Source: Dermatophilaceae bacterium
Lineage (GTDB): Bacteria; Actinomycetota; Actinomycetes; Actinomycetales; Dermatophilaceae
DNA length: 64,000 nucleotides
Reading direction: 5' to 3'
NCBI GenBank assembly: GCA_040006675.1
Contig: JBDTWM010000002.1
Location: forward strand, 4,177 to 68,176
Shown one piece after another: positions 35,696 through 55,937 of this stretch. The notes beneath the pieces are model-generated. The model was not told the origin of the DNA, did not search any database, and worked only from the letters and a program-made list of their open reading frames with translations. Each line of letters starts with the position of its first letter. Within the stretch, counting starts at the first letter, position 1. The translations under genes were made by a program, and so were the position numbers.

Positions 35696-35711
35696 TGTGA
35701 CGCGTCCCACG
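35696..35711. promoter_or_regulatory. Candidate CRP/GlxR site
   Basis: TGTGA-CGCGTC-CCACG (GTG-N8-CAC core) in the ligase/phaZ divergent intergenic region. Confidence 0.4.
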
Positions 35712-35724
35712 ATTGGGCACCAAA

Positions 35725-35746
35725 ACTAACCGACCGTCCGGTGGGA
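35725..35746. promoter_or_regulatory. PaaR-type operator
   Basis: ACTA-ACCG-AC-CG-TC-CGGT with a perfect core. Confidence 0.7.
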
Positions 35747-35930
35747 GTCAATTACCGATCCCGGCTCGCGGAAGCATGAGAGCGCACACTCCCCGACGCT
35801 CGTGACGTCAGGGGTCTCGGGCGCCCCGCGTGAGGGGCCTCCCCTTGCTGACCTGGCTGTGTAGGCGCAAGATGTAACCCATTCAACACGATCACGTCCT
35901 AGATCGGGGCTCGTTCGTGACGCAAGATAG

Positions 35931-35946
35931 AACCGAACGTTCGGTT
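35931..35946. promoter_or_regulatory. PaaR-type operator (perfect 16-bp palindrome)
   Basis: AACCGAACGTTCGGTT, 90 bp upstream of the phaZ ATG. Confidence 0.75.
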
Positions 35947-36036
35947 GTAAAGTCCGACAGGAGCGAGCGGGCCACCGCGACGGCGCACGACGGAGCTAGG
36001 CCCGTCGGCGTGGTCCGGACACCGCGAGGAGCTAAA

Positions 36037-36870
36037 ATGCCCGACATCTCGATCTCTGACCTGCTGGCCGGGATTTCCCAGGCCGAAATCACCACCACGA
36101 CGATCCACCTGCGTGGAATCAACATCCACGTGCAGATGTGCGGGGGGACGGGTCCCGTCTTGCTCATGTACAACGGAGCCTTCGCCGAAGTGGACCTGTG
36201 GAAGGCCCTCCTTCCGTACCTGAAGGGCTTCCGGATCATCATGTTTGACCCGCCGGGCGTCGGACAGACCGAGATCCCGCTCCTGCCGATGAACATGTTC
36301 GCGCTGGCCGAGCTCGGCACGTTGATCCTGGACTTCCTCGAGATCGAGAAGGCGCACGTGCTGGGGGTCTCGTTCGGCGGCGCCACGGCGCAGCAGATGG
36401 CGCTCATGCACCCGCGCCGCGTGGACAAGCTCGTCTTGGTGTCCACGTCCTTCGGTGGGTTCGCCATGCCCGGCAAGCTGAAGTCGTTCTACTACTTCTG
36501 TCAGCCTTCCAGCCACAAGCCGGGCAAGGTGGAAAAGGTCGCCGGTGAGTTGTACGGCGGTCGGCTGCGCGAGGAGCCGGAGATCATCAACTCCCTGCAC
36601 ATGACGCGTGCGCCCAGCATGCGAGCGGCGATGCTCCGGATGTCCGCGCTGATGGGCTGGACATCGTTGCCGTGGCTGTGGGCCATCCGGCAACCCACGC
36701 TCATCGTGGCAGGCGACGATGACCCGGTGACCCGCCTGTTCAACCACAAGGTGATGGCTCGGATGATCCCGAAGGCGCGCCTGCACGTCGTCCCCGATGG
36801 CGGACATATGGTGCTGCTTGACAGCCCAGAGCGGGTCGGGCCGGTCATTTCCAAGTTCCTGCGCGAGTAG
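36037..36870 (+). CDS. phaZ: Intracellular PHA depolymerase (Pseudomonas PhaZ-like alpha/beta hydrolase)
   Basis: LLMYNG, FDPPGVG, lipase box GVSFGG, GDDDPV, GGHMVL. GAGGAG precedes ATG 36037; near phaC. Confidence 0.75.
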   Translation: MPDISISDLLAGISQAEITTTTIHLRGINIHVQMCGGTGPVLLMYNGAFAEVDLWKALLPYLKGFRIIMFDPPGVGQTEIPLLPMNMFALAELGTLILDFLEIEKAHVLGVSFGGATAQQMALMHPRRVDKLVLVSTSFGGFAMPGKLKSFYYFCQPSSHKPGKVEKVAGELYGGRLREEPEIINSLHMTRAPSMRAAMLRMSALMGWTSLPWLWAIRQPTLIVAGDDDPVTRLFNHKVMARMIPKARLHVVPDGGHMVLLDSPERVGPVISKFLRE

Positions 36871-36951
36871 GGGCGCCGGCGCGCGGATCACATCACCCGG
36901 GGGGCCCGTCCGTGTTCCGCAAGGACCCCTCGGCTCCCGTGAGGCGACCCC

Positions 36952-38244
36952 TCAGGAGGCCATGGCCGGTGAGGGCGGCCGCAGGGCCAGCGACAAGGCG
37001 CAGGCGCAGGCCGCGAGCGCCGACACCATCAGGAACGACGTCGAGAATCCCCCGGACTTCTCCGCAAGCACCCCCGCCACGAGGGGGCCGATCGCCTGGC
37101 CCAGACCGAAGATCACGGTGAGCATGCCGAAGGTTGTCGCGGCCTGGCCGGGACCCATGTAGTCGCCGACCGCCGCCGCGATGATTCCGGGGATGCTCCA
37201 GGCGGCGAAACCAAAAAGGGCCACCGAGGCGTAGACGGCTTCGATGGGTAGGTGCAGACCAACGAGCAGGTACGACACCGTGTGCAGCGCAAACACCGCC
37301 GCCATGCCGACGCGTCGGCCCGCGCGGTCTGAGAGCGCACCGAACACGGGTCCCGAAAACATGCTCAGGGCGCCGACGGCGAACCAGAAGTAGCCGGCGT
37401 TTCGCTCGCTGACACCTCGCTCCTGGACCAGGGACGTCACGATGAACGTGACGTACACCACGTAGGTGAAGCCGAACAGGAAGTAGATCGCGCCGAAGTG
37501 CGCGACGGTGCGCGCGTTGCCCGTCGGCGCAGACTCGCTGCTCTGCCGCCCGTGGGCAGTCATGTCGACACGGTGTGTGTGCACGCGTATCCCGAGATCG
37601 GCGGGGGCGTTGCGGATCAGCACACCGACCACCAGCGCGACGACGAGAACGACGACGGCCAAGCAGACCCAGCCAATCCGCCAGCCTGCAGGTCCCCAGC
37701 GATCGGTGATCGCGGGGATGAGCAGCCCGCTCATCATGATGGCCGGTCCACTGCCGATCACCATGATTCCCGCCGCGCGTCCCCGCCAGCGCCGTGAGAA
37801 CCAATGCGGCACGAGGCTCATCACCCCCACGTTGGCGGCCCCGCTCCCGAGGCCGGTGACGAGATACGCCGGCCAGATGAGCGTCACCGCGCCTGCCGAC
37901 GCGACGACAAAGAGGCTGAGCGCGATGATGATCAGCGAGGAAAAGACCACGGCGCGTGCCCCGAAGCGCCGCACCAGCCTTCCGCAGACCAGCGCCGCCA
38001 CCAAGTACCCGACGAAGTTTCCGGTGCTGATGAAGCCCATGTCGGTGTAGGACAGGTCCATGTCGGCCCGCATGGACGGCAGCAGCATGCCCAGCGAGAA
38101 CCGTGCGATCCCCAGGCAGGCGAAGACCGTCGCCATTCCCAGCCCAGCGATGACCCAGCCGTAGTGCACGCGGCTCCCGGCGAGACGAGCCGCCCACGAG
38201 CCGTCGCCGCGGCCCAGCTGCCGGGCGTTACGGGTGTCCTTCAT
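36952..38244 (-). CDS. MFS transporter (YbfB/YjiJ-like)
   Basis: About 12 hydrophobic segments, GIARFSLGMLLP, GALSDRAGRR. Confidence 0.85.
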   Translation of the reverse strand: MKDTRNARQLGRGDGSWAARLAGSRVHYGWVIAGLGMATVFACLGIARFSLGMLLPSMRADMDLSYTDMGFISTGNFVGYLVAALVCGRLVRRFGARAVVFSSLIIIALSLFVVASAGAVTLIWPAYLVTGLGSGAANVGVMSLVPHWFSRRWRGRAAGIMVIGSGPAIMMSGLLIPAITDRWGPAGWRIGWVCLAVVVLVVALVVGVLIRNAPADLGIRVHTHRVDMTAHGRQSSESAPTGNARTVAHFGAIYFLFGFTYVVYVTFIVTSLVQERGVSERNAGYFWFAVGALSMFSGPVFGALSDRAGRRVGMAAVFALHTVSYLLVGLHLPIEAVYASVALFGFAAWSIPGIIAAAVGDYMGPGQAATTFGMLTVIFGLGQAIGPLVAGVLAEKSGGFSTSFLMVSALAACACALSLALRPPSPAMAS

Positions 38245-38264
38245 GGAGCCTCCTCACACGTGAC

Positions 38265-38295: not shown

Positions 38296-38318
38296 GCCCT
38301 GCGTCGTCGACCGTCCGT

Positions 38319-39887
38319 CTACACGGACGATATCCGCGCGCTGTCGGTGGTGGTCCGCAAAGCGTCCGGGTCGATCCCCGTCACGGCCTGGATGCGGATC
38401 CGATCGAAGGTGCGATTCGCCGCCGTAAGTTCTTCCCCGCGTGGTTGGGTCGCCAGCGAGACGAGCCACATCACGAGGAACCCGATAGGCACCGAGACGA
38501 TGCCGGGGCTGCTGAACGGCAAGAGGGCGCTCTCGGCCGAGCCGTGGAACGTCGGGCTCAACAAGATGATCGTGACAGCGGTGACCAAGCCCGCCACCAT
38601 GCCGACCGCGATGCCCTGGGCCGTCGCCTTGCGCCAGTAGATGGTGAACAGCAGCGCCGGCAGGTTGGCGCTCGCCGCCACCGCGATGGCGAGCGTGGCC
38701 AGGAACGCCACGTTCTGTTTCTGTGCGGCCAGCGCGATCAGCATCGAGATGAGGACGCTCGCGAACGTCGCGATCCGCGTCACCCGAAGCTGCGCGTGGT
38801 GGTTGACGTGATCACGCTTGATGAGCTTGGCGTAGATGTCGTGAGCCACGGACCCGGTGGTGGCGATCACCAGACCGGACAGCGCCGCGAGGATCGTCGC
38901 GAACGCCACCGCAGACACGAACGCGAGGAGGAGGTCACCGCCGAGCACGTCCGCCAACTGCGGCATCGCGAGGTTGCCGCCGGGACTTGCCTTCTTGATC
39001 TCCGCCTGGGTCACGAGCAGCATCGCGCCGTAGCTCACCACGGGGAGCGTGATCAGGAAGCACGCAAAGATCCAAATAGCGGTCACAGCGGAGGTGCGTG
39101 CCGCGGCGCCGTCCTTCACGGTCAGGAAGCGGATCATGACGTGGGGTAGGCCCAGCACGCCGAGCGTGACACCGAAGATCAACGAGAACTGCTCGACCTG
39201 CTTTCCGGCGCCAGCTCGGGTCGGGATCAGCGCCTTGTTGCCGTTCCCAGCGCCGGCCTCCCGGAACACCTCGAGCGGGTTCCAGCCGAACTTCGCGAGC
39301 ACCAGAGCCAAGAGCAGCGCCCCGCAAAACAGCAGCAGGGCTGTCTTGACGATCTGGATGTACGTGGTGGCGATCATCCCGCCGAAGAGCGTGTAGATCA
39401 TGGTCAACACGCCGATGGCCAGGGCGGCCACCAGGTACGGGATACCGAAGAGCAACTGCACGAGCAGCGCCGCACCCACGAACTGAGCGACGATGTAGAG
39501 CAGCGAGACCACGATCGAGGCGGTGGCGATGACGGCCCGGACCCCGCTCCCGGGGAACCGGGTGGCCAGCACGTCGCCCAGGGTGAAGTGGCCCAGGTTC
39601 CGCAGCGGCTCGGCCACGAGCAGCATGCACAGCAAGTACGCGATGGGGATATAGACAGCCAGGTAGAAGCCGTTGAACCCGCCGAGAGCGATCGCGCCGG
39701 TCGTGCCGAGGAAGGTCGCGGCCGAGATGAAGTCGCCCGCGATGGCGACGCCGTTGGCGCGGCCCGAGATCGCCCCCCTGGCGACCAGGTGGGATTCGAC
39801 GGTCTTGTTGCGCTTGCCCGCCCAGTACGTAATACCCAGCGTGACCGCGACCAGCGCGAGGAAGAGAACGGCAGCCTGAACGCTCAT
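38319..39887 (-). CDS. actP: Cation/acetate (monocarboxylate) symporter, SSS family
   Basis: NGVAIAGDFISAATFLG, AEPLRNLG, GLPHVMIRF, AVAFATILA, ASANLPAL; downstream of DUF485. Confidence 0.85.
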   Translation of the reverse strand: MSVQAAVLFLALVAVTLGITYWAGKRNKTVESHLVARGAISGRANGVAIAGDFISAATFLGTTGAIALGGFNGFYLAVYIPIAYLLCMLLVAEPLRNLGHFTLGDVLATRFPGSGVRAVIATASIVVSLLYIVAQFVGAALLVQLLFGIPYLVAALAIGVLTMIYTLFGGMIATTYIQIVKTALLLFCGALLLALVLAKFGWNPLEVFREAGAGNGNKALIPTRAGAGKQVEQFSLIFGVTLGVLGLPHVMIRFLTVKDGAAARTSAVTAIWIFACFLITLPVVSYGAMLLVTQAEIKKASPGGNLAMPQLADVLGGDLLLAFVSAVAFATILAALSGLVIATTGSVAHDIYAKLIKRDHVNHHAQLRVTRIATFASVLISMLIALAAQKQNVAFLATLAIAVAASANLPALLFTIYWRKATAQGIAVGMVAGLVTAVTIILLSPTFHGSAESALLPFSSPGIVSVPIGFLVMWLVSLATQPRGEELTAANRTFDRIRIQAVTGIDPDALRTTTDSARISSV

Positions 39888-40198
39888 CGGTCGCTCCCCC
39901 CTGTCGCTGTGCTGCGCAGCGGACGCAGTTCCTCCTCGACCTTCTGCATCCGGGTCCGGTAGCTGGTCGTCAGGATGACGACGAAGAAGAACTGCGCGAA
40001 GGCATACACGTAGGCCCAGCTCATGCCGTCGAAGGCCATACCGTCAAGAACTGGGGTGAAGTTCGTGAGCACCTGCTGGAGGAAGAAGAAGACCAGGGTG
40101 AGCACCACCAGCGGGACGACGATCTTGCGACGCGCGGCGACCATCTCCGCGTAATAGCGGTCGTTCGCCGCTCCGGTTTCCTCAAGGTTCGGGGGCAT
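39884..40198 (-). CDS. DUF485 (YjcH-like) small membrane protein
   Basis: Two TM helices with YAFAQF; overlaps the actP start. ATG at 40198. Confidence 0.85.
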   Translation of the reverse strand: MPPNLEETGAANDRYYAEMVAARRKIVVPLVVLTLVFFFLQQVLTNFTPVLDGMAFDGMSWAYVYAFAQFFFVVILTTSYRTRMQKVEEELRPLRSTATGGSDR

Positions 40199-40473
40199 GC
40201 AGTTGGTTCCTTTCCGCAGGGCGGCCCTCCGCGTGATGGTGGGGCGCTGGCGTCGTTGACGGGGTGAGACGAAAAAGACGTCGGACGTCGAGGAGTGGCC
40301 AAGACACGTCCGGCGGTACCGAGTCCGGCCTATGCACGGCCGCCACAAGGAACGCCTCAGTGCCTATCGTCAGTGAGACGTGAGTGTCCCGGCGCCGCTC
40401 GTGACGACGGGTTTTTCGCGCCTCGCCTTCCCGCCGATCGTGGAGGGTCTCCTGGACACCTCGCATCATGCCA

Positions 40474-40489
40474 TGTGGCATAGGTCACG
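40474..40489. promoter_or_regulatory. Candidate CRP/GlxR site upstream of DUF485-actP
   Basis: TGTGG-CATAGG-TCACG. Confidence 0.4.
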
Positions 40490-40513
40490 CCGGGAAGGAC
40501 GAAGCTCAGTATT

Positions 40514-40554
40514 ACCGACCGAACGTTCTGATGTCCAGACACCGACCGATCAAT
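40514..40554. promoter_or_regulatory. PaaR-type operator(s) upstream of DUF485-actP
   Basis: ACCG-AC-CG-AA-CGTT (one mismatch, 40514-40527) and a degenerate ACCG-AC-CG-AT-CAAT (40541-40554). Confidence 0.55.
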
Positions 40555-40606: not shown

Positions 40607-41995
40607 TCAGCCTGTGGAGGCCATTGCCTCGCAAAGTAACTCGAGTTCGTCCCCCAGGTACGCGCCCAAGCGCGGCAGATTCGGGACAAGCGACGGATCC
40701 GCGATCAAACCCCAACACAGCCGTCCCGCGATGCTGAAGACGGAGATGTTGAGCCCCTGGCCGTGCACCAACACCGAGACCGGGTAGTTCCCGATCACCT
40801 CGGCACCCGCCAAGTACCTCGTCCTGTCGGGCCCCCGCACATTCGACACCATCACGTTCCACGCGTTGACGTGCTTCATCACCCTCGCTGACAGCCGCCA
40901 TGCGGCGTCGGCGACGATCGGCGGAGCGAACTGCGCGGCATCGATCAGCAGCTGCGGCGGGCGCGCGCCGTGCCGCCGCCGCGAGGCCCTCATCTCCTCC
41001 CGCGTCGCGGCGAGACGCTCGAGTGGGTCCTCGAGGTGAGTCGGTAGCAGCCCTCGTACGAGCGACAGCCGGTTGCCGAACGCGTGCCCATCTCGCCGGT
41101 CGCGAACGGACACCGGGACGACGGCGATGAGCGGCACGACCGGCAGCGCCCCCGCGTCGATCAGCCAGCGTCGCAGGGCGCCGGCGACGACGGCCATCAC
41201 GACGTCGTTCACCGTCGCGTCCGCGCGGCGCCGAAGTTCCAGGACGTCCGCCATGGGTAGGTCGACCAGGACGCAGCTGCGCGCCCCGGTGATCTCGCGG
41301 TTGAACGGCGTGGGAGGAGCCGTCAGCGGCAGGGGCCACTGCTCCGGGGCGAGGCGATTGGCCGCGACCAAAGGCGCGCGGAACATGAAGTCGAGTCCCA
41401 GCTTTACGCTGCGCACGGACGAGCGGGTCATCGACCACCCGCCGCGCCTCATCAGATCCCACTGGGTCGGGCCGGAGCGCGCCTCCCACGCGCCGGCCGG
41501 GAGCGCAGGGTTCCCCGGTTCGTCGTCCAACAAGGCGTCCATCAACGCCGACCACCCTGCGCCGTCCATGACCGCGTGGTGGATCTTGAGGTAGATCGCA
41601 GACCTTCCCTCGGACAGTCCGCTGATCAGATACAGCTCCCACAGGGGACGTCTCCGGTCGAGGCGCCGGGCGTGCAGCCCTGCGACGGCGTTCGCGAGCT
41701 GCCACAGGTCCGAACTCGTCGGGAGTGCCACCTCGCGCACGTGGAAGTCAAGGTCGAAACCCGTGTCGTCGACCCAGTACGGCTGGTCGACCCCAAAGGC
41801 CACCGTCAACAGACGCTGACGAAGCACAGGCACAGAGGTCAGGCAAGAGGCCACGCGCTCACGCACCGCGCGCACGTCCAAGGGCGCGCCGGTGAGGGTC
41901 CGCACGACGGTGACGGTCCCGAAGTGGCCTTGGACCGCGCCCGACTCCATCGCCAGAAACTCCGCGTCCATCCCGCTGAGCTGACGCACGACCAT
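40607..41995 (-). CDS. Wax ester synthase/diacylglycerol acyltransferase (WS/DGAT)
   Basis: LSGMDAEFL, PYWVDD, LDRRRPLWELY, catalytic HHAVMDG, TVNDVVMA, VSNVRGP. ATG at 41995. Confidence 0.92.
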   Translation of the reverse strand: MVVRQLSGMDAEFLAMESGAVQGHFGTVTVVRTLTGAPLDVRAVRERVASCLTSVPVLRQRLLTVAFGVDQPYWVDDTGFDLDFHVREVALPTSSDLWQLANAVAGLHARRLDRRRPLWELYLISGLSEGRSAIYLKIHHAVMDGAGWSALMDALLDDEPGNPALPAGAWEARSGPTQWDLMRRGGWSMTRSSVRSVKLGLDFMFRAPLVAANRLAPEQWPLPLTAPPTPFNREITGARSCVLVDLPMADVLELRRRADATVNDVVMAVVAGALRRWLIDAGALPVVPLIAVVPVSVRDRRDGHAFGNRLSLVRGLLPTHLEDPLERLAATREEMRASRRRHGARPPQLLIDAAQFAPPIVADAAWRLSARVMKHVNAWNVMVSNVRGPDRTRYLAGAEVIGNYPVSVLVHGQGLNISVFSIAGRLCWGLIADPSLVPNLPRLGAYLGDELELLCEAMASTG

Positions 41996-42054
41996 CTCAC
42001 CTCCCGATCGGCGCCCCGAACGCCCACACCGGCGACTCCATCGGCGCGTCGGGC

Positions 42055-43074
42055 CTACCCGTCCACCTGCTCGTAAAAGCCCTCCGTGTGGATGCGTCGC
42101 TCCTCCGCGCCCAACACGTGGACGGCGTCGGCACACGCCTCTACGAACTCTGGCACACCGGCGATGAAGACGCTATGTTGCCGTAGCGATGGCATCAGGG
42201 CTGGCAAAATGTCCGGGATCCGCCCGTGACGCACACCTGGGACCTTCTCGCGGGTCAGCGTCGGCACGATGCGGAAGTTCGGGTGTTTGATCTCCCAGTA
42301 ATGCAGCAGCCCCAGGTCGTAAAGGTCGTCCCGCTGCCTCGCCGAGAAGATGAGCGTCACCGGCTCGCGGAAATCACGCCGGAGCGCCGCCTCCGCGAGC
42401 GACAGGATCGGCGCCAACCCCGACCCCGCAGCCAGACACAGGACCGGCGTCTCCTCGGACGGATCCCCGACGAACGTGCCGTGCGGACCCGACAGCTCCA
42501 CGCACTCCCCCGGGGCCACTGCGTGCAGCCAGGCGCTCGTCCGACCGTCGTCCACCCTGGTCACCTGCAAACGTAGCTCCCCGTCGGGGCGCGGCGCGCT
42601 CGCGAGCGAATAGGAGCGAGCTGGCATGCCGCGCGCAGGGTCCCCGACGCGCACGTACTGACCCGCCCAGTAGCGCATCGGCTCCGCCAGGGGGCGCAGG
42701 ACGAGTTCCGCGATCCGTGGCGTCCGCCGAACGTTGTCGACGACCACGAACCGCTGCCCCTCACGCACTGGGAACATGGCGGGCCGCGCGTCGGCGGTCC
42801 CCCACTCGATCTCCAACTCCGGAGACGTCAACTTCGCCATGCACATGAGCCCATAGCCCTCGGCGCGCTCCTCCGGCGAGAGGGCCATATCCAGGACGAA
42901 ACCCTGATCGAAGGCACCGGAGCGCACCTTCACCTTGCACTCCCCGCACGCGCCCGCGCGGCAGTTGTTAGACAAGGCATACCCGGCCCGCTCCAACGCC
43001 TCCAACACCGTATCCCCGGACTCGCACGACACCGCATGGGATGACGGATACAAGCGGATCCGCCCCATGGCCAT
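42055..43074 (-). CDS. 2Fe-2S ferredoxin:NAD(P)H/FAD reductase (oxygenase reductase type)
   Basis: CRAGACGEC...LMC, RSYS, GRTS, AAGSGLAP, TEGF. Confidence 0.9.
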   Translation of the reverse strand: MAMGRIRLYPSSHAVSCESGDTVLEALERAGYALSNNCRAGACGECKVKVRSGAFDQGFVLDMALSPEERAEGYGLMCMAKLTSPELEIEWGTADARPAMFPVREGQRFVVVDNVRRTPRIAELVLRPLAEPMRYWAGQYVRVGDPARGMPARSYSLASAPRPDGELRLQVTRVDDGRTSAWLHAVAPGECVELSGPHGTFVGDPSEETPVLCLAAGSGLAPILSLAEAALRRDFREPVTLIFSARQRDDLYDLGLLHYWEIKHPNFRIVPTLTREKVPGVRHGRIPDILPALMPSLRQHSVFIAGVPEFVEACADAVHVLGAEERRIHTEGFYEQVDG

Positions 43075-43134
43075 CACCTTCCAGCCCAACCCTCCAGCCA
43101 CCCGCCGGTCGGCGTGTGACCGCATCGTCGCCGT

Positions 43135-44163
43135 TCAGAAGACCGGGATGATGTCTTCCATGTCGACATCGGTGACCTCGACACCGGTGATCTCGACCTC
43201 GGGAATGGCCGGGAACGGGATGCCGTAGCGGTCTAGGACGCCCTTGAGGTTGAGCATCGCGCGACGCCAGTTCGCCTTCTTCTCCTCGTACTCGGGGATC
43301 GCGAAGCCAGCCTCCCGCGCCACCGACTCGCCGAGGCGCTGGTTGGTGATGAAGTCGTCCGGCAAATCCCAGAAGTCCGTCGGCGGCTCGAACAGGATGG
43401 CCGACAAGAACAGGTACCCGGCCCGGATCTGCTTGGTGATCAGGGCGTGGTCCTCGACATCGATCTTGGGGTAGTCGCGCTCCATGAGCGCCAGACAGAT
43501 GCCCATGTGACGCCCCTCGTCGCGGCCGATCCGCCGGAACGCCTCCTGGAAGACAGGCTCGGTGCATCCCGCGGCCATCTCGTGGAAGATCGTTGCGGCC
43601 GCGATCTCACCCATGAGGAACGAGGAGAACAGCACGGCCAGGCTGTACTTCGGGACGGCCTCCTTGTAACCCGCCCAGTAGCGACCACCGTTATGGAACA
43701 ACCAGAGGACGTTCTTTTGCAGCCGGTGCCCCAGCTCGGTCTTGGGAAGGTAGGTCGCCGGGTCGTCGTGCTCCAGCAAGGACGTGATGGCGAGTTTGCA
43801 CATCTGCTCGTGGACGCCCTCGTCGCGGGTGATGGAGAAGAAGCACCGCCGCACCACGTCGTCCTCGTGATCCTCGTACGTCTTCACGAACGCCGTGGCC
43901 ATCACGGGCGGCGCTGAGGCGTCGAACACGGCGCACAGCGTCCACCAGTACGCGATCGCCTCACGCTGCTCCCACGAGTACCGGTTCACGTCGAACCCGG
44001 CCCACGGCAACTGGGCGGGTTCCCACAATTCACGCAGTGAGGACTTCCAGATCTCCTCCATCTTGGGCGGGCCCTCCGGCCAGCTCAACGGGTAGATATT
44101 GGGCTGCTGGACCTCCGGCGGGAAGTCCTGCAAGTGCGCGATCTTCTCGTAGTGTTCGCTCAC
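43135..44163 (-). CDS. Ferritin-like (R2-fold) diiron protein of unknown function
   Basis: D81, E115/H118 (RDEGVH), E186, E216/H219 (RDEGRH). AGGAG precedes GTG 44163. Confidence 0.8.
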   Translation of the reverse strand: MSEHYEKIAHLQDFPPEVQQPNIYPLSWPEGPPKMEEIWKSSLRELWEPAQLPWAGFDVNRYSWEQREAIAYWWTLCAVFDASAPPVMATAFVKTYEDHEDDVVRRCFFSITRDEGVHEQMCKLAITSLLEHDDPATYLPKTELGHRLQKNVLWLFHNGGRYWAGYKEAVPKYSLAVLFSSFLMGEIAAATIFHEMAAGCTEPVFQEAFRRIGRDEGRHMGICLALMERDYPKIDVEDHALITKQIRAGYLFLSAILFEPPTDFWDLPDDFITNQRLGESVAREAGFAIPEYEEKKANWRRAMLNLKGVLDRYGIPFPAIPEVEITGVEVTDVDMEDIIPVF

Positions 44164-44288: not shown

Positions 44289-44306
44289 ACTGACTCTCCA
44301 TTCGGT
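44289..44306. promoter_or_regulatory. Degenerate PaaR-type site in front of the diiron operon
   Basis: ACTG-ACTC-TC-CA-TT-CGGT, just upstream of a minus-strand TACTCT -10 candidate (44264-44269). Confidence 0.35.
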
Positions 44307-47356: not shown

Positions 47357-47401
47357 TTGACAGATCCGAAGACACAATGAAAAACTGACTGAACGTTCGG
47401 T
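47357..47401 (+). promoter_or_regulatory. paaA promoter with PaaR-type operator
   Basis: TTGACA at 47357-47362. ACTG-ACTG-AA-CG-TT-CGGT at 47384-47401 overlaps the expected -10 position. Confidence 0.72.
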
Positions 47402-48412: not shown

Positions 48413-48732
48413 CCGAAGGACAGACGAACTCGCCGGCGGGGTCGACCAACCGGGGCTCCTGGCCGCTCTGGGAGGTCTTTGTCCGCGCCAAGCGCGGCTT
48501 GTCCCACCACCACGTGGGCAGCCTGCACGCGCCGGACGCCCAACTGGCCTTGCACAACGCGCGCGACGCCTACACCCGCCGGTCCGAGGGCGTGTCCTTG
48601 TGGGTCGTGCCGTCGAGCGCGATCGTTGCGAACAGCCCCGACGAGAAGGACTCCTTCTTCGATCCGTCCATGGACAAGCCGTACCGACACCCGACGTTCT
48701 ATGACGTGCCGGAAGGAGCGGAGCACCTGTGA
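48409..48732 (+). CDS. paaB: Phenylacetyl-CoA epoxidase subunit B
   Basis: [35 protein letters not shown]. Confidence 0.96.
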
Positions 48733-49499
48733 CCGTCATCAGCACCTCCACGAAGCTCGCGCCGCTGTCGCGGTACGCGCTGGGATTGGGCGACGACGCC
48801 CTCGTTCTGGCCCAGCGCCTCGGCGACTGGGTCGCGGACGCGCCCCAGATCGAAGAGGATCTGGCGATGGGCAACATCGCGCTGGATCTGCTCGGCCAGG
48901 CGCGGTCCTTGCTCACGTACGCGGGTGAGGTCGAAGGTGCCGGGCGCGACGAGGACGACCTCGCGTTCTTGCGCAACGACGCCGACTTCCTCAACGTCCA
49001 CCTGGTGGAGGCGCCGAACGGCGACTTCGCCTTCTCGATGGCGCGCCAGCTCGTGTTCTCCGCCTATCAGTACGAGCTCTATTCCGCGCTGCTCGGGTCC
49101 AGCGACCAGATGTTGGCCGGCGTGGCCGGCAAGGCGGTCAAGGAGGTCAGCTACCACCGGGAGCACGCCACGTTGTGGGTGCTGCGACTCGGCGACGGCA
49201 CGGAGCTGTCCCACCAGCGGATGCAGACCGGGTTGGACGATGTCTGGCCCTATGTCGACGAGCTCTTCGATGCCAGCGACGTCGTGGCGCAGCTGCCCTC
49301 CGTGGCGGTGGACCCCGCGAGCCTGCGTGCGCCGTGGCAGGCGTACATCGGACCGGTCCTCGCCGAGGCCGGCCTCACCGTGCCCGAGTTCACGTGGCGT
49401 TCCCGCGGAGGCCGCGACGGATACCACTCCGAGCATCTGGGGCACCTACTGGCCGAGATGCAGCACCTGCACCGCTCACACCCGGGAGCCACGTGGTGA
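48729..49499 (+). CDS. paaC: Phenylacetyl-CoA epoxidase subunit C
   Basis: LGDDALVLAQRL, APQIEEDLA, KEVSYH, HSEHLGHLLAEMQ. Confidence 0.96.
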   Translation: MTVISTSTKLAPLSRYALGLGDDALVLAQRLGDWVADAPQIEEDLAMGNIALDLLGQARSLLTYAGEVEGAGRDEDDLAFLRNDADFLNVHLVEAPNGDFAFSMARQLVFSAYQYELYSALLGSSDQMLAGVAGKAVKEVSYHREHATLWVLRLGDGTELSHQRMQTGLDDVWPYVDELFDASDVVAQLPSVAVDPASLRAPWQAYIGPVLAEAGLTVPEFTWRSRGGRDGYHSEHLGHLLAEMQHLHRSHPGATW

Positions 49500-49987
49500 G
49501 CAACTCATCGCTGACCTCGCCTCACCTCGACGCGCTGATCGTCGCGGCCAAGGCCGTCCCCGACCCAGAGATCCCCGTGCTGTCACTGGGAGATCTGGGG
49601 GTGATCCGCGATGTGCGCATCGCTGACGACGGCAGCGTCGACGTCGACATGACGCCGACCTATTCTGGGTGCCCGGCCACGGCGGTGATGGCGCAGGACG
49701 TCACGACTGCCCTCCGGGCCTGCGGCGCATCAGAGGTGCGGGTGCGCACCGTTCTCTCCCCCGCGTGGACGAGTGACTGGATCAGCGAGGAGGGGCGGGA
49801 GAAGCTGCGCGGTTACGGCATCGCGCCTCCCGGCCGGGCGACACTGCCCCTCGCCACGTCGGTCCGATGCCCTCGCTGCGACTCGAGCGACACCATAGAG
49901 GTGAGCCGCTTCGGCTCCACCCCCTGCAAGTCCTTGTGGACGTGCCGCTCCTGTAGCGAACCCTTCGATTTCTTCAAGGCGATCTGA
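49496..49987 (+). CDS. paaD: Phenylacetyl-CoA epoxidase subunit D
   Basis: VPDPEIP, TPTYSGCPA, WTSDW, CPRC, FGSTPCK, EPFDFFK. GTG at 49496 overlaps the paaC stop. Confidence 0.94.
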   Translation: MSNSSLTSPHLDALIVAAKAVPDPEIPVLSLGDLGVIRDVRIADDGSVDVDMTPTYSGCPATAVMAQDVTTALRACGASEVRVRTVLSPAWTSDWISEEGREKLRGYGIAPPGRATLPLATSVRCPRCDSSDTIEVSRFGSTPCKSLWTCRSCSEPFDFFKAI

Positions 49988-51123
49988 TGGTTGACACGGC
50001 GACTCCCGGGCAGGCCGACCTGCCCACCACTTCTCCTGTCGGACGCCGCCACCTGACGTTCCACACGTTGCGCGTGGCGGCGGTCGACCGGCTGACCGAG
50101 GACGCCGTCGCGGTGACCTTCGATGTGCCGGCGGAACTGCGCGAGCAGTTCCAGTTCAAGCCGGGCCAGCACGTGTCGGTGCGCTCCAAGGTCCTCGGCG
50201 ATCGTGTCCGTCGCAACTACTCGATCTGCGCGCCCGCCGGCTCCGGCAGGCTCCGGATCGGCGTGAAGAGAATCCCGAACGGCGTGTTCTCCGGATTCGC
50301 CACAGAGAAGCTCCTCGCCGGCGACGTCCTGGACGTGCTGACCCCCTCCGGCAGCTTCACCATCGACCCTGACGCCACCCGTGCGCACCACTACGGCGCG
50401 ATCGCGGCGGGCTCTGGGATCACGCCCGTCCTGTCGATCCTGTCCACGGCCCTGGAGCAGGAGCCGCACAGCAGGGCGACGCTGATCTACGTCAACCGCA
50501 CCACCTCGAACATCATGTTCTTGGAGGAGCTGGAAGACCTGAAGAACGCATACCCGTCGAGGTTCCAGCTCATCCACGTTCTCGACTACGAAACTGTCGA
50601 CGTCGACATCCTGTCGGGACGGTTGGACGCCGACCGGCTCAACCGCATCCTGCACCACCTGATCCAGGCCGATGAGATCGACGACTGGTTCCTGTGCGGC
50701 CCGCTGCCGATGACGGATGCCGCGCGCCAGGTGCTGATGGACGCAGGCGCGGACCCCGAGCACATCCACCGTGAGTTGTTCCACGTCGGGGGTCCGGCCG
50801 TCGCGTCAGCCGCCCCGCCACCGGACGAGGCGGCCACCAAGATCGGCTCATCGGTGACCGTCATGCTCGACGGTCGCTCGCAGAGCTTCATCCTCGCGCC
50901 GAACGGACCCGCGATCCTCGACGCGCTCATAGAATTCCGCCCCGACGCCCCGTACGCCTGCAAGAACGGCGTCTGTGGCACCTGCCGGGCCAAGGTCATG
51001 TCCGGCGACGTCTCGATGGACAGCAACTTCGCGCTGGAACCCTATGAGATGGCGGCCGGCTTCGTGCTGACCTGCCAAGCCCATCCGGTCAGTGACCACG
51101 TGACCGTCGACTTCGACCAGTAG
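49987..51123 (+). CDS. paaE: Phenylacetyl-CoA epoxidase reductase subunit E
   Basis: RRNYSIC, AAGSGITP, FLCGP, C-terminal CKNGVCGTC...LTCQ. Confidence 0.94.
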   Translation: MVDTATPGQADLPTTSPVGRRHLTFHTLRVAAVDRLTEDAVAVTFDVPAELREQFQFKPGQHVSVRSKVLGDRVRRNYSICAPAGSGRLRIGVKRIPNGVFSGFATEKLLAGDVLDVLTPSGSFTIDPDATRAHHYGAIAAGSGITPVLSILSTALEQEPHSRATLIYVNRTTSNIMFLEELEDLKNAYPSRFQLIHVLDYETVDVDILSGRLDADRLNRILHHLIQADEIDDWFLCGPLPMTDAARQVLMDAGADPEHIHRELFHVGGPAVASAAPPPDEAATKIGSSVTVMLDGRSQSFILAPNGPAILDALIEFRPDAPYACKNGVCGTCRAKVMSGDVSMDSNFALEPYEMAAGFVLTCQAHPVSDHVTVDFDQ

Positions 51124-51136
51124 GAGACGGTGAGAG

Positions 51137-52402
51137 ATGGCCCTGATACACACTGAACGGCGCGGTGCTGCCCTCCTGCTCGGCCTGAACCGGCCGGAGA
51201 AGCACAACGCCTTGGACGAGGCGATGGTCGAGCAGATCGATCGGGTGCTCGCGGAGGCGTCGCGGGAACCCTGCGTCATCGTCCTGCATTCCACGACCCC
51301 AGGGCTCTTTGCTGCGGGCGCGGACATCGCCCAGCTCCGAGATCGCGACGCGGACGCCGCGCTGAGGGCGATCAACGCCGGCCTGTTCGAGAGGCTGGAA
51401 GCTCACCGCTGGCCGACCATCGCTCTCATCGACGGACCCGCCATCGGCGGCGGCTCCGAGCTGGCGCTCGCCTGCGACCTTCGCTTGGCGACACCGCGGG
51501 CTCGGTTCGCGCAGCCGGAGCTCGCGCTGGGCATCCTCGCCGGCGCGGGCGGCAACTGGAGACTCGCTCAGGTCGTCGGCCTCTCCGTCGCTCGCCGGAT
51601 GCTGTTCACCGGTGAGGCGCTCGACGCGTCGGCCGCCGCAGAGGCGGGGCTCGTCGACGCGATCCACGATCCCGAGGATCTGCTCGCGGCTGGCTTGGCG
51701 CTGGCCGAGCAGATCGGCCAGCGGTCTTGGCGCGCTCTGGAATTGACCAAGCTCGCGCTGCGGCTGCACCGCCCGGCGACCACCACCTTCGACATCGCGG
51801 CCCAGGCCCTGCTCTTCGACACCGACGACAAGCGCGAGCGGATGACCCGTTTCCTCGATCGCCACGCGGCGCGCAAAGCCTCGCCTCCCGCTGCCCCAGC
51901 CGCTGCTGCGAGCGGCGGGCCCGACCCGGTCGGGCCGCTGAGCGTGCGTCAGCTCACCATCGAGGACGGCCTGGCCCTCGCGATGTCCCCGGCCCCGGGG
52001 GCTTGGCACGTCCACGACGGCTCAGAGATGCCGGACGAGGGCTACCGCGCCGTCGTCGACGGCGAGGGACGTCTGATCGGGCACTGCTGCTTCGGCGAGG
52101 CGGCGCGGGCCACGGGAGCTCCGAGCCATCCCACGGTGCTGGACGTGTCCATCGGCATCCGCCCGACATACGCCGGGCGCGGCTGGGGAGCGTCCCTGGG
52201 CCGGGCGGCTATTGCCCACGCGCGCAAGGTGGCTGCCGATCGCCGACTGCGGACGACGGTCCCGGAGTGGAACTCAGCAGCTATCCACGTCGCTGAGCTG
52301 TCCGGTTTCACCCGAATCGGCACGGCCACCTATGGCGGTCAGCCCTACCACGTGCTGGAGCAGGCGGGCTCTCCTCCACCGGGAGAGCCGACCGACGATT
52401 GA
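51137..52402 (+). CDS. Enoyl-CoA hydratase (PaaF-like) fused to a C-terminal GNAT-like domain
   Basis: FAAGADI, GGGSELALACD, AQPELALG in the first ~245 aa; Pro/Ala linker; then IRPTYAGRGWG and WNSAAI..SGF. Confidence 0.8.
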   Translation: MALIHTERRGAALLLGLNRPEKHNALDEAMVEQIDRVLAEASREPCVIVLHSTTPGLFAAGADIAQLRDRDADAALRAINAGLFERLEAHRWPTIALIDGPAIGGGSELALACDLRLATPRARFAQPELALGILAGAGGNWRLAQVVGLSVARRMLFTGEALDASAAAEAGLVDAIHDPEDLLAAGLALAEQIGQRSWRALELTKLALRLHRPATTTFDIAAQALLFDTDDKRERMTRFLDRHAARKASPPAAPAAAASGGPDPVGPLSVRQLTIEDGLALAMSPAPGAWHVHDGSEMPDEGYRAVVDGEGRLIGHCCFGEAARATGAPSHPTVLDVSIGIRPTYAGRGWGASLGRAAIAHARKVAADRRLRTTVPEWNSAAIHVAELSGFTRIGTATYGGQPYHVLEQAGSPPPGEPTDD

Positions 52403-52496
52403 ATTGCTGGGGCGACGCCCCACCGTCCACATCCTGATGACCTTGAACCCGTGTCGGCGAGCCGTCGGCCGGCACCCTTCACACCCGAGGTGATGC

Positions 52497-54197
52497 ATGT
52501 CCGAGCCCACCACTACGCAACCCGACTTCTTCTCACGACACCGCGAGCTGCTTGAGCGATCCGTCACCGCCATCCAGGAACGCACCAATTTCTCGGCGTT
52601 CTCGGAGAACCCCCGCGACCCTGGCTACGGGGAGAACGCGATCAACGACGGCGCGACCGCGTTCCAGGCGCTGCTCGGCAAGAAGTTCGATCTGGGCCAG
52701 CCCGAGGCGGGCACGGTTCCCGCGACCGAGAAGTCACCGTATGGGATCCCCCTCGACCTGACCTACTCCTACCTCGGCCCCGACGAACTCGTGGCGGCCG
52801 CGAAGGAGGCGGGCCGCTCCTGGCGCCGGGCGAGCGCGGACGAGCGCGCCGGTGTGTGCCTGGAGATCCTGGTCCGCCTCAACCAGGCGAGCTTCGAGAT
52901 CGCCAATGCCGTCCAGTTCACGACCGGACAGGCTTTCGCGATGGCCTTTCAGGCGGGAGCCACCCACGCCCAGGACCGAGGCCTAGAAGCGGTGGCCTAC
53001 GCCTGGAAGGAACAGCACTTCCACCCGGGGTCCGCCATCTGGAGCAAGCCGCAGCCCAAGGGCGGACCGCTGACGATGGAGAAGACATTCACGACGCTCG
53101 GGCGCGGCGTTGCGCTCGTCGTCTCGTGCGTGACCTTCCCGACCTGGAACACGTACCCGGGTCTGTTCGCGAGCCTCGCGACCGGCAACCCGGTCATCCT
53201 CAAGCCGCACCCGCGCTCGATCCTCCCGGTGGCCATCACCGTGCGGATCGCCCGCGAAGTCCTCGCGGAGGCCGGTTTCGACCCGAACACCGTGCTTCTC
53301 GCGCCCGACATGCCGGGAGAGCCCATCGCCGGCAAGCTCGCCACCAATCCGGACGTGCGGATCATCGACTACACCGGTTCCACGGAGTTTGGCGAATGGA
53401 TCGAGGCGAACGCGCGGCAGGCGACCGTGTACGCGGAGAAGGCCGGCCTCAACACGGTAATCCTCGACTCGACGGACAACTACAAGGGCCTGCTGTCCAA
53501 CCTGGCGTTCTCCCTGTCGCTCTACAGCGGCCAGATGTGCACCACGCCGCAGAACCTGCTCATCGCGTCCGCTGGGATCGAGACCGACCAGGGCCACCGG
53601 AGCGTGGAGGAGTTCGGCGCGGATCTGACGGCCGCGCTCAACGGGCTGCTCGGGGACGTCAAGCGGGCGACGGGCATCCTGGGCGCTATCTCCAACGAGG
53701 CGGTCACGGAGCGCATCGACGACGCCGCAGGCCAGGGTCCGGTGGTGCGCGCCTCCGAGGCGGTCGGGCACCCCCAGCACCCGGACGCGACCGTTCGCTC
53801 TCCCTTGCTCGTCGCGTTGAAGGCGAGCGACGAGGGCACGTACACCAAGGAGTGGTTCGGCCCGATTTCGTTCATCATCGAGACCGACAGCACTCCTGCG
53901 AGCCTGGACATCCTGCGTGAGACGGTGCGGCAGCACGGGGCCCTGACGGCGGCCGTGCACTCCAGGGACGAGTCGGTCCTGGAGGCGGCGCGTGAGGCGG
54001 CGCTCGATGCCGGCGTGCACCTTTCGGAGAACCTGACCGGCGGCGTCTTCGTCAACCAGTCGGCCGCGTTCAGCGATTTCCACGGGAGCCCGGCGAACCC
54101 GGCCGCGACCGCCACCTTGTCCGACCCTGCTTTTGTCGCCGGACGTTTCTCAACCTTGCAGAGCCGCCGCCACGTTCCTGCACCTGCGCAAGCCTGA
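52497..54197 (+). CDS. paaN: Phenylacetate degradation aldehyde dehydrogenase (PaaN type, no MaoC domain)
   Basis: TFPTWN, DYTGST, EKAGLN, GQMCT, EWFGP, VFVNQSAAFSDFH. Confidence 0.9.
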   Translation: MSEPTTTQPDFFSRHRELLERSVTAIQERTNFSAFSENPRDPGYGENAINDGATAFQALLGKKFDLGQPEAGTVPATEKSPYGIPLDLTYSYLGPDELVAAAKEAGRSWRRASADERAGVCLEILVRLNQASFEIANAVQFTTGQAFAMAFQAGATHAQDRGLEAVAYAWKEQHFHPGSAIWSKPQPKGGPLTMEKTFTTLGRGVALVVSCVTFPTWNTYPGLFASLATGNPVILKPHPRSILPVAITVRIAREVLAEAGFDPNTVLLAPDMPGEPIAGKLATNPDVRIIDYTGSTEFGEWIEANARQATVYAEKAGLNTVILDSTDNYKGLLSNLAFSLSLYSGQMCTTPQNLLIASAGIETDQGHRSVEEFGADLTAALNGLLGDVKRATGILGAISNEAVTERIDDAAGQGPVVRASEAVGHPQHPDATVRSPLLVALKASDEGTYTKEWFGPISFIIETDSTPASLDILRETVRQHGALTAAVHSRDESVLEAAREAALDAGVHLSENLTGGVFVNQSAAFSDFHGSPANPAATATLSDPAFVAGRFSTLQSRRHVPAPAQA

Positions 54198-54214
54198 CGG
54201 GGCGGGTGATGGCT

Positions 54215-54251
54215 GTCGGCCCCGGCGGTGTGCGCTACCGCGGGGGCCGAC
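54215..54251. terminator. Hairpin between the convergent paaN and paaR genes
   Basis: GTCGGCCCC-G-GCGGT-loop-ACCGC-G-GGGGCCGAC. Confidence 0.65.
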
Positions 54252-54315
54252 TCAGCACCGTGTCAAGCAGGTGCAGCGGGCCATCCTTCGAGGTGTGACC
54301 TTCGGGGAGGGCAGG

Positions 54316-54957
54316 TCAGCGACGAAGGCCTTCGAAAGCGACGGCCCGGATCACTTCTGCGAGATCTTCGGGTCGGTCGCTGCGGCGTGGCCGGTACCAC
54401 TCCACCACCGAGTTGATCATCCCGAAGAGCAGTCGAGCGGCGACGGCGGGCTCGATGTCGACGCGCAGGTCGCCCTCGTCCCTGGCCTGAGTGACCAGCC
54501 CCGTGACGAGAGAGTCGAACCGCCGCCGGCGGGCCAGAGCGCGCCGTTCCACCGGCGTGTTGCCCCGCACGCGGAGCAGCAAGGTCACCAACGGAAGCTC
54601 GTCGGCCAGGAGGAGCACGCTGCGCCGCACCAACTCCTCGAGGCGCTGGAAGGCCGTGCCGTGCACGTCGGACACCTCGTCGAGCACGGTGAACAGGCCG
54701 TCGAGCGCGCGTTCCGTAGCCAGGCGCAGCAGTTCTTCCTTGCTGGACACGTGGTGGTAGATCGCGGATTTGGTGATGCCCAGCTCGTGAGACAGATCCT
54801 CCATGCTCGTGCCGTCGTACCCGCGATCGTTGAAGACCCTGACCGCGCCGCGGAGCACGGATTCGAGGTCATGTCCGGGGCGCCCACGCCGCGTCTTGGT
54901 CACAGGTGACCTCGCCCCGGGGGCGAGATGAACTGTCATAATGTCTGACCCTGCCAT
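54316..54957 (-). CDS. paaR: TetR family regulator, PaaR-like
   Basis: GYDGTSMEDL...KSAIYHHVSSKEELL HTH, LLFGMINSVVEWYRP; embedded in the paa cluster. Alternative ATG at 54939. Confidence 0.8.
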   Translation of the reverse strand: MAGSDIMTVHLAPGARSPVTKTRRGRPGHDLESVLRGAVRVFNDRGYDGTSMEDLSHELGITKSAIYHHVSSKEELLRLATERALDGLFTVLDEVSDVHGTAFQRLEELVRRSVLLLADELPLVTLLLRVRGNTPVERRALARRRRFDSLVTGLVTQARDEGDLRVDIEPAVAARLLFGMINSVVEWYRPRRSDRPEDLAEVIRAVAFEGLRR

Positions 54958-55101
54958 TCTGGTCGACGTCTCAGAGGAACTGCAGCTGAGCAGCTAGGTG
55001 CGAGTATACGAACGACCAGGCGGAGTCCCCGGGATCGACGACGTCCGATCGGTCGAGGTCGGCCTCGCAGACGGTGCCGTCGCACCCCGCGGTCGTTGGT
55101 T

Positions 55102-55890
55102 TCAGCGACCCGTGAACGTCGGGCGCGCTTTTGCCAGGAACGCCTCGACGGCCCCCCGGTGATCCGCGGTCGAGCCCACCGTCATCTGATCTTCGCCCTC
55201 GGCCGCCAGCGCGGCCTCGAGGTCGAGGTTCCAAGCGCCCTGGAGGGCCTTCTTGACCGTCGCGTACGCGGCCGTCGGCCCCGCGGCGAGCCTGGCCGCC
55301 ATCTTCTGCGCCTCGGCCGCCAAGGTGTCGGCCGGCACGACGCGCCCGACCAGGCCCCACTCGTACGCTTGCGCGGCGTCGAACGTGGGAGCCAGCAGCA
55401 GCAACTCGCTGGCCCGGGCCATCCCGACGGCGCGCGCCAGCGTCGCTGACAGGCCGGAGTCGGCGGTGAGTCCGATCCCCGTGAACGCGGTGCCGAACTT
55501 CGCCGTGTCCGCCGCGATCCTCAGGTCGCAGGCCAGCGCGAAACCCAGTCCCGCGCCCACACACGTACCGTTGATCGCGGCGATCACGGGCTTGGGCATC
55601 GTGGACAGTGCCATGACGATGGGGTTGTAGCGCTTCTCCACGGTGGACAATGCGAGCTCCGGGCCACCGTCCGCCAGCGCCTGCGCATGCTCGGCGAGGT
55701 CTTGCCCGACGCAGAACGCCTTGCCGGCGCCCGTGAGGATGACAGCGCGAACGGTGTCGTCCTGCCCCGCTGCCGCCAGCGCCTCGCGGAGCGCGACCTT
55801 CACGTCGTCGTTCAGTGCGTTGCCCTTCTCCGGCGCGTTGAGGGTGACGGTGACAACCGCCCCGTCCTGCGCGACGAGCAGCTGCTCCAT
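55102..55890 (-). CDS. paaG: Enoyl-CoA hydratase/isomerase (PaaG-like)
   Basis: AFCVGQDL, GAGLGFALACD, GLTADSG, DHRGAVEAFLAK; Asp-type crotonase in paa context. Confidence 0.72.
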   Translation of the reverse strand: MEQLLVAQDGAVVTVTLNAPEKGNALNDDVKVALREALAAAGQDDTVRAVILTGAGKAFCVGQDLAEHAQALADGGPELALSTVEKRYNPIVMALSTMPKPVIAAINGTCVGAGLGFALACDLRIAADTAKFGTAFTGIGLTADSGLSATLARAVGMARASELLLLAPTFDAAQAYEWGLVGRVVPADTLAAEAQKMAARLAAGPTAAYATVKKALQGAWNLDLEAALAAEGEDQMTVGSTADHRGAVEAFLAKARPTFTGR

Positions 55891-55912
55891 GCGGATCTCC
55901 TCACGGCACCCA

Positions 55913-55937
55913 AACGACCGGTCACTGAACGTTCATG
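55913..55937. promoter_or_regulatory. Degenerate PaaR-like sites upstream of paaG
   Basis: AACG-AC-CG-GT-CACT and ACTG-AA-CG-TT-CATG; the latter shares the GAACGTTC centre with the other sites. Confidence 0.35.

Follow-up and report, generated by a model that had tools for sequence, protein, structure and literature searches.

A PaaR-type box at paa and neighbouring promoters of a Dermatophilaceae locus suggests an extended regulon

The TetR-family repressor PaaR is known as a local switch of the phenylacetate (paa) genes, and the locus analyzed here raises the question of whether such a repressor may act on a wider set of functions. The window, i.e. the whole stretch of 64,000 nt that was analyzed (contig C2, positions 4177-68176), comes from a Dermatophilaceae genome of 3.0 Mb (68% G+C, 228 contigs; termed here G000) and contains a paa cluster, a gene for a putative PaaR and, next to them, genes for acyl-CoA ligases, permeases, polyhydroxyalkanoate (PHA) metabolism and a diiron protein. 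The window was compared with four further genomes that possess the cluster, namely the closest relative G002, G005, G006, and G084, a member of another genus; gene identities were taken from family searches with NCBIfam and Pfam profiles. The comparison suggests that one type of palindromic box extends beyond the paa genes to functions in uptake and CoA activation, to a polyester set, to neutral-lipid synthesis and to a putative iron oxygenase, and that one signal probably switches a larger programme than the one described for PaaR. Taken as a whole, we consider this explanation fairly probable. Its parts differ: the support is good for the paa promoters and for a PhaZ-like hydrolase, comes from conserved footprints for the actP and diiron units, and is tentative for the ligase-phaC operon.

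The regulator and its palindrome

The candidate regulator (213 aa, encoded at 54316-54957) comprises an N-terminal TetR helix-turn-helix domain (PF00440) and a C-terminal ligand domain (PF17932), and its gene is the single PaaR-family gene of G000. Among structures in the PDB it matches SCO3833 with an E-value of 1.6e-56 and, second, PfmR (3VPR, E-value 5e-21). In a tree of TetR proteins, for which those of the relatives were taken from tblastn segments, it groups with TetRs of G002, G005, G006 and G084 with a support of 100/100. The possibility that it is a diverged paralogue was overturned by the finding that proteins 74-79% identical to it are common in other actinobacterial families. Orthologues on three outside contigs (L066, L067 and L068; 74-77% identity) are all encoded beside paaABCDE, one of these contigs, from a metagenome-assembled genome of Kineosporiaceae, shows the identical layout of paaH-J-ABCDE-F/GNAT-N, the TetR gene and paaG, and in the outside loci the same box (e.g. 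the perfect ACCGAACGTTCGGT) precedes paaA, paaH, paaG and the regulator gene. The proposal of an earlier, sequence-only reading of this DNA that the local TetR protein is PaaR is thus borne out by its clade, by the neighbours of its homologues and by their boxes. The gene adjoins paaABCDE in the window, G002, G005 and G006, with the exception of G084, where the two are 165 kb apart. In the window it is probably co-transcribed with paaG and would therefore be autoregulated. A second TetR type, about 53% identical and separate in the tree, adjoins paaK in two relatives (G001 and G004). We also found a second PaaR-type paralogue, again about 53% identical, in G005 and G006 (loci L015 and L016); it has a ACCGACCAGTCGGT box of its own, and no paa genes or paaK were found nearby in these loci.

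The sequence-only reading had listed perfect cores of the palindrome at 35729-35742, 35932-35945 and 44460-44473, and all three positions are exact. The window thus contains three copies of the core ACCGNNCGNNCGGT where 0.35 are expected, a count reached in none of 100 shuffles, and with 17 copies in 3.0 Mb the Poisson probability of at least three within a span of 20.2 kb is 1.3e-4; the 14 cores outside the locus are scattered, and 12 of them fall in coding sequence. One-mismatch copies are about twofold in excess (21 in the window against 10.2 expected), with most members of this class looking like chance matches. The motif of the locus is narrower than the core and reads ACYGAACGTTCRGT, or takes a double form of 18 bp, which is readable as two overlapping 14-mers at an offset of 4 bp. 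Such an offset may reflect two dimers on one operator, an arrangement known for some TetR proteins. The concentration of the motif, which the sequence-only reading had left to be set against background frequency, is evident for the 11-mer GAACGTTCRGT: six of its seven matches in the genome lie within the locus, as do 7 of 9 in the orthologous locus of G002, 2 of 2 in G005 and 2 of 3 in G006, while the reversed pattern gives no match in seven genomes and one in G003. The remaining matches in the relatives were set aside, as they lack the second half-site or lie inside genes.

A comparison with characterized operators shows the same 14-bp architecture in the site preferred by PaaR of Thermus thermophilus (TTHA0973), AACnAACGTTnGTT, as determined by REPSA (PMC6651687), with which the motif ACYGAACGTTCRGT agrees at 10 of 12 specified positions, and this motif likewise resembles the operator of Burkholderia cenocepacia PaaR, ACCGACCGGTCGGTT (PMC9493321).

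We scored the genome with a matrix built exclusively from five sites of the outside loci, using five Markov-1 random genomes as the control. Over the 3.0 Mb the top three matches are the boxes of paaA (26.0), the hydrolase (23.2) and paaH (19.6), with the best match beyond the locus at 17.8 and maxima of 17.5-21.0 in the random genomes. The hydrolase box therefore ranks second genome-wide, above every maximum of the control, and stands on a par with any bona fide paa operator. The paaA box has the top score with every matrix; with an 18-mer matrix trained on the relatives only, it is followed by the paaG box and the diiron site.

Beyond the locus, a spacer rich in A/T that is flanked by a DNA-methylase-like gene and a gene for a TauE/SafE-like permease contains a box-like ATGACTGAACGTTTGACAAT with a score of 18.8 (C31:2346), a possible additional member of the regulon. 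Three other matches were dropped. One (C36:3071, score 14.9) lies 55 nt upstream of a penicillin-acylase-like gene (868 aa), between TTGACG and a -10-like element, and was attractive because PaaX of Escherichia coli controls pac; the orthologous regions of G002, G005 and G006 score below 7 and contain a different palindrome, CGGACGTCCG, which may belong to another regulator. A match at C31:14997 and its counterpart in G084 are start codons of ndk (MTER...), i.e. a coincidence of coding sequence, and a 14-mer identical to the lig1 box at C137:5482 falls on a stop codon and is due to chance.

Boxed promoters and the reach of the regulon

The boxes and promoters of the locus are as follows (positions are those of the window).
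47384-47401, 18-mer ACTGACTGAACGTTCGGT at the paaA promoter, containing the 14-mer ACTGAACGTTCGGT (47388-47401) and overlapping the putative -10 element and transcription start site
44460-44473, box ACCGAACGCTCGGT at the paaH promoter, 47 nt 5' of the paaH ATG and 3' of TTGACA at 44413-44418
55924-55941, 18-mer at the paaG promoter, ACCACATGAACGTTCAGT as read on the minus strand, 5 nt 3' of the -10 element
44289-44306, degenerate 18-mer upstream of the diiron gene, ACCGAATGGAGAGTCAGT as read on the minus strand, abutting a conserved A/T-rich -10-like element
35932-35945, perfect hydrolase box ACCGAACGTTCGGT, 92 nt 5' of the hydrolase ATG
40508-40537, minus strand, actP promoter: -35 TGGACA (40532-40537), box CAGAACGTTCGGTCGGT (40514-40531), -10 AATACT (40508-40513)
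35723-35751, minus strand, lig1 promoter: -35 TTGACT (35746-35751), box ACCGGACGGTCGGT (35729-35742), -10 TAGTTT (35723-35728)

The genes to which they belong, and their neighbours, are these.
44520-47333, plus strand, paaH-paaJ (family searches; the thiolase scores above the NCBIfam cut-off)
47417-54197, plus strand, paaABCDE, a paaF-GNAT fusion and paaN (PaaA, B, C, D, E and N above the NCBIfam cut-off)
54316-54957, minus strand, paaR, TetR-family repressor (TetR_N and TetR_C_24)
55102-55890, minus strand, paaG-like enoyl-CoA isomerase, at the head of the paaG-paaR unit (family search)
43135-44163, minus strand, R2-like diiron protein of 342 aa with two ExxH motifs
42055-43125, minus strand, BenC-like Fer2/FNR reductase (family search)
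40607-42136, minus strand, WS/DGAT (family search)
39884-40348, minus strand, DUF485 protein (family search)
38319-39887, minus strand, ActP/MctC-like sodium:solute symporter (family search)
36952-38244, minus strand, MFS transporter (family search)
36037-36870, plus strand, PhaZ-like alpha/beta hydrolase (TIGR02240 as best family, below the cut-off)
33984-35495, minus strand, lig1 (family search; start at 35495 set by comparison of the five genomes)
32332-33987, minus strand, lig2 (family search)
31014-32192, minus strand, thiolase of the lig1 operon (family search)
28964-31081, minus strand, class II-like phaC with the lipase box GGCAGG
28074-28874, minus strand, phaB-like reductase (family search)

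The genes lig1-lig2-thiolase-phaC-phaB form one operon (28074-35495, minus strand) with overlapping stops and starts. The gene content given by the sequence-only reading agrees with this map, save that the operon encodes two ligases and not one. For the hydrolase the five-genome comparison sets the start at a conserved ATG at 36037 with a ribosome-binding site, in place of the GTG at 35917 of the longest open reading frame; because of this shift, and with lig1 starting at 35495, all the boxes that had been listed, and described as intergenic, are indeed so.

Several of the earlier sites changed in register. The one-mismatch copies reported at 40514 and 47388 are both present; for the former a better register is 40518-40531 or the whole block 40514-40531. 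The degenerate copy at 44293-44306 belongs to the 18-mer 44289-44306, which keeps its position 5' of the diiron gene in five genomes, and the one at 55913-55937 is in fact the 18-mer 55924-55941, which is conserved in G002. That a perfect TTGACA precedes two of the boxes, at 44413 and 47357, holds as reported. At the paaA promoter this hexamer (47357-47362) is followed after 17 nt by the putative -10 element and start site, and the box is conserved in G002, G005 and G006. The paaG promoter, on the minus strand, consists of TTGACC (55969-55974), a spacer of 16 nt and TAGAAT (55947-55952), and the same arrangement is found in G002. The hydrolase box forms the centre of a 22-bp near-palindrome, TAGAACCGAACGTTCGGTTGTA, with a -10-like TAAAGT directly after it; in all five genomes a box lies 90-120 nt 5' of the ATG of the orthologue, and in four of them a TAnnnT hexamer follows 0-3 nt after it. 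At the actP promoter the box fills the entire 18-nt spacer between the -35 and -10 elements, and the block (T/C)(G/A)GACA-CAGAACGTTCGGT-nnn-AATACT is invariant in four genomes, with diverged flanks. The box upstream of the diiron gene is of the type ACCGAAYG-NN-GATTCAGT and keeps its position in all five genomes, the copy of the window being the most degenerate of them. The lig1 box sits at the start of a 17-nt spacer; the promoter hexamers are recognizable in the five genomes, and a box in the spacer is present only in the window and G002.

The genes themselves also stay together. In G005 and G006 the order is actP-MFS, phaC-lig2-lig1, hydrolase, Fd-diiron, paaR, paaEDCBA, and in G084 it is paaR-diiron-reductase, hydrolase, lig1-lig2-thiolase-phaC, with paaABCDE 165 kb off, i.e. 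the non-paa set keeps its linkage to paaR through rearrangements. A homologue of lig1 in a further genome (G194; 52% identity) was rejected as a comparison, as the cluster is absent there.

On this basis we propose that a PaaR dimer, or two overlapping dimers at the 18-mers, would bind the ACYGAACGTTCRGT-type palindromes at seven promoters within 20 kb, where the boxes lie in the spacer between -35 and -10, on the -10 element or on the start site, and where the bound repressor could block RNA polymerase. The predicted targets are the promoters of paaA, paaH, paaG (autoregulation), the diiron unit, actP and the hydrolase, and less surely that of lig1. Release would be brought about by an aryl-acyl-CoA, most likely phenylacetyl-CoA. 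The regulon may thus have been widened to uptake by ActP/MFS, to the activation of substrates with CoA by lig1/lig2 and to an accessory oxygenase because the lineage lacks a canonical PaaK, and the polyester synthase and depolymerase set would take up or release the flux of acyl-CoA. The claim of the sequence-only reading that PaaR also controls non-paa units is accordingly supported for the hydrolase, DUF485-actP-MFS and the diiron unit, the boxes of which are conserved in four to five genomes, and is weak for the lig-thiolase-phaC-phaB operon.

A number of observations weigh against so wide a regulon. Among the listed sites the paaA, hydrolase and paaH boxes lead the genome scan with the position weight matrix, whereas those of actP, the diiron gene and lig1 do not rise above the noise: the actP box scores 13.9 and ranks 12th with the outside-family matrix, the diiron box (18.1) is at the control ceiling of the 18-mer matrix, and the lig1 box (10.7-11.3) is within genome noise on both. 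The spacer of the lig1 promoter has no box in G005, G006 and G084; the actP and diiron boxes depend for their support on conservation in genomes that are rather closely related; the identity of the inducer is taken over from homologous regulators; a relative, G003, lacks both PaaK and lig1; and no box was found at paaABCDE of G084, therefore the targets would seem to shift between lineages.

The scores, all three within what random or reversed genomes yield, could mean that the paa and hydrolase promoters are the only real targets and that the boxes at actP, the diiron gene and lig1 are weak look-alikes, non-functional or serving another factor. We regard this as improbable, since the actP box and its hexamers are invariant in four genomes amid diverged flanks, the diiron box is found at the same place in five genomes, one of them from another genus, the lig1 box fits exactly into the 17-nt spacer of a conserved promoter, and no other PaaR-family protein is encoded.

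The situation in G084, where the regulator accompanies boxed diiron, hydrolase, ligase and phaC genes and paaABCDE is distant and boxless, would also agree with the same regulator and sites serving a general sensor of acyl-CoA or hydroxyacyl-CoA, similar to PfmR or FadR, which switches storage and beta-oxidation with paa as one branch; the PHA and WS/DGAT storage genes among the candidate targets and the rank of PfmR as second-best structural match point the same way. However, the 74-79% identical orthologues of other families adjoin paaABCDE with the same box, the characterized PaaR proteins respond to phenylacetyl-CoA, and the diiron pair is linked to paa genes elsewhere, which makes a general sensor rather unlikely.

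Finally, it is very improbable that the palindromes arose by chance in a GC-rich genome or that they are RNA hairpins or terminators: although a sequence scan lists 35729-35742 as a terminator-like hairpin and most other one-mismatch matches of the window are chance, such an origin is contradicted by the enrichment and the concentration in the locus, and the sites lie 5' and not 3' of genes, are conserved across genomes and lie in spacers that match no Rfam family.

Ligases, storage genes and the diiron-reductase pair

PaaK (TIGR02155) was not found in G000, where the best match has 47 bits and 646 are required, and a tblastn search with PaaK of a relative gives 25% identity at best; it is likewise absent from G002, G005, G006 and G084, and present in 15 of the 31 relatives. 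Thus the ligases and permeases may be entry steps and not storage functions, and it is reasonable to suggest that the two ligases, together with the ActP and MFS permeases, provide such steps for phenylacetate or phenylalkanoates. The argument of PaaK replacement is not clean because of the above-mentioned G003. Both ligases are of the FadD type: lig1 is nearest to feruloyl- and fatty-acyl-CoA synthetases, and lig2 to an "AMP-binding domain protein" (6IHK/6IJB), which we take to be a methylthiopropionate-CoA ligase, and to the long-chain fatty-acid-CoA synthetase of T. thermophilus.

Going by homology, the thiolase, the PhaB-like reductase, the class II-like PhaC and the PhaZ-like hydrolase resemble the components of a complete polyester cycle. 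PhaC matches PF07167 with 176 bits and its GGCAGG fits the lipase box G-x-C-x-G-G, with scores under the family cut-offs (620 against 855 for TIGR01839, 488 against 623 for class I), and the hydrolase comes closest to the PHA depolymerases of the Pseudomonas type (TIGR02240), with 171 bits where 251 are required. Another PhaC paralogue, with 43% identity, is encoded at C6:12182-13687; the synthase linked to PaaR is therefore not the sole synthase of the genome.

The diiron protein does not match PF05138 (PaaA_PaaC) and shows weak matches to Rubrerythrin, R2 and AurF families. The nearest folds of its AlphaFold model (pLDDT 81) are R2 and R2lox, with a TM-score of about 0.5, and PaaA is not among the top 50 fold matches; the protein was therefore not assigned to the PaaA/PaaC family. 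It is 70-78% identical to "hypothetical" proteins of Burkholderiales, Rhodospirillales, Campylobacterota and Bdellovibrionota, and these homologues always adjoin an orthologous Fer2/FNR reductase (loci L059, L062, L063 and L065 included), to which the partner reductase of the window is 50-63% identical (in Proteobacteria and Campylobacterota). Among the 31 relatives the pair is present only in G000, G002, G005 and G006. In two Sulfurospirillum genomes it lies within a cluster of iorAB, a liv-type transporter, an enoyl-CoA hydratase gene and paaX, K, J, I, H, G, F and N, and in the one complete genome checked, that of Sulfurospirillum sp. 1612, no match to PaaA was found; in Ramlibacter the pair is located between paaG-paaK-paaJ and paaF-paaZ, and in Paucibacter it follows a PaaX gene, the remaining genomic contexts being uninformative. 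Its neighbourhood makes the pair a candidate substitute for the ring epoxidase. As it lies beside PaaR here and beside PaaX elsewhere, it is linked to two unrelated sensors of phenylacetyl-CoA across phyla, which supports its place in the regulon.

One could go further and combine these elements under a single PaaR signal: the FadD-type ligases would replace PaaK, the diiron pair would act as another ring oxygenase, of the two-component kind, on phenylacetyl-CoA or a closely related aryl-acyl-CoA (the same enzyme as the stand-in for PaaABCDE in Sulfurospirillum and the pair in the paa cluster of Ramlibacter), and the polyester cycle of class II-like PhaC and PhaZ would be fed directly by the aromatic route. 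This combination we put forward as a speculation that is unlikely to hold.

Relation to known systems and further observations of the locus

The locus resembles the known PaaR systems of T. thermophilus (TTHA0973), B. cenocepacia and Corynebacterium glutamicum in the TetR fold, in the position of the gene inside the paa cluster, in palindromic operators with an AACGTT or ACCG...CGGT core, and in sites over the paaA, paaH and paaG promoters with likely autoregulation. The C. glutamicum consensus reportedly described by Chen et al. in 2012 agrees with the one quoted in the sequence-only reading; a literal search for this 22-mer gave no match. The described PaaR regulons consist of paa genes, whereas here conserved boxes are found also at the hydrolase, ActP/MFS and diiron-WS/DGAT units and, less surely, at the ligase/PHA operon, and paaK, a standard target of PaaR, is missing from the genome. 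A regulon reaching past the core paa genes has a parallel in PaaX of E. coli W and Pseudomonas, a GntR-type repressor responsive to phenylacetyl-CoA that also controls the penicillin acylase gene pac. The paaX genes of Paucibacter and Sulfurospirillum adjoin the same diiron-reductase pair; unlike PaaR, PaaX belongs to an unrelated protein family with an unrelated operator, and the box at the penicillin-acylase-like gene here is weak and not conserved.

In Pseudomonas putida the phenylacetyl-CoA catabolon exists together with a PHA cycle (PhaC1-PhaZ-PhaC2-PhaD, FadD/ACS1, PhaJ/PaaL permease), and in Pseudomonas phenylacetyl-CoA and aromatic PHA are metabolically tied. The locus described here is similar in that acyl-CoA ligases, a permease of the sodium:solute symporter family, a PhaZ-like hydrolase and a PhaC resembling class II would be functionally tied to phenylacetyl-CoA metabolism. 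It differs in that the host is an actinobacterium, that PhaC and PhaZ score below the family cut-offs, and that the link in Pseudomonas is metabolic, with pha under PhaD and paa under PaaX, whereas here one PaaR box type accompanies both sets. PfmR of T. thermophilus (3VPR), a TetR repressor of phenylacetate and fatty-acid genes, likewise spans paa and other acyl-CoA metabolism, its similarity being distant; we know of no storage-polymer or uptake targets described for it, and a literature search retrieved no description of a link between PaaR and PHA. The locus thus offers a testable case of a catabolic repressor that may also steer carbon storage. The actinobacteria concerned belong to a wastewater group in which the performance of the process depends in part on storage polymers. 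The locus also provides candidates for two roles: a route to phenylacetyl-CoA other than PaaK, and the function of a diiron-reductase pair distributed across phyla.

Several minor features of the locus deserve mention. An untranslated leader of about 160 nt (40350-40505, minus strand) precedes the coding region of the DUF485-actP operon, and a second conserved block, CCCGGCGTGACCTnnGCCACA, is located just 3' of the actP promoter (alignment columns 107-126) and has no match in Rfam. The Rfam search returned three tRNAs only, and no family matching the box-bearing spacers; these tRNA genes (Val-GAC, Cys-GCA and Gly-GCC) lie on the minus strand at 56189-56466, between paaG and glgX. The fusion of a PaaF-like enoyl-CoA hydratase with a GNAT domain (51137-52402) is found also in the paa cluster of Kineosporiaceae (L066, 12362-13717), where a protein of 451 aa combines the enoyl-CoA hydratase with Acetyltransf_1 at the equivalent position of the cluster.

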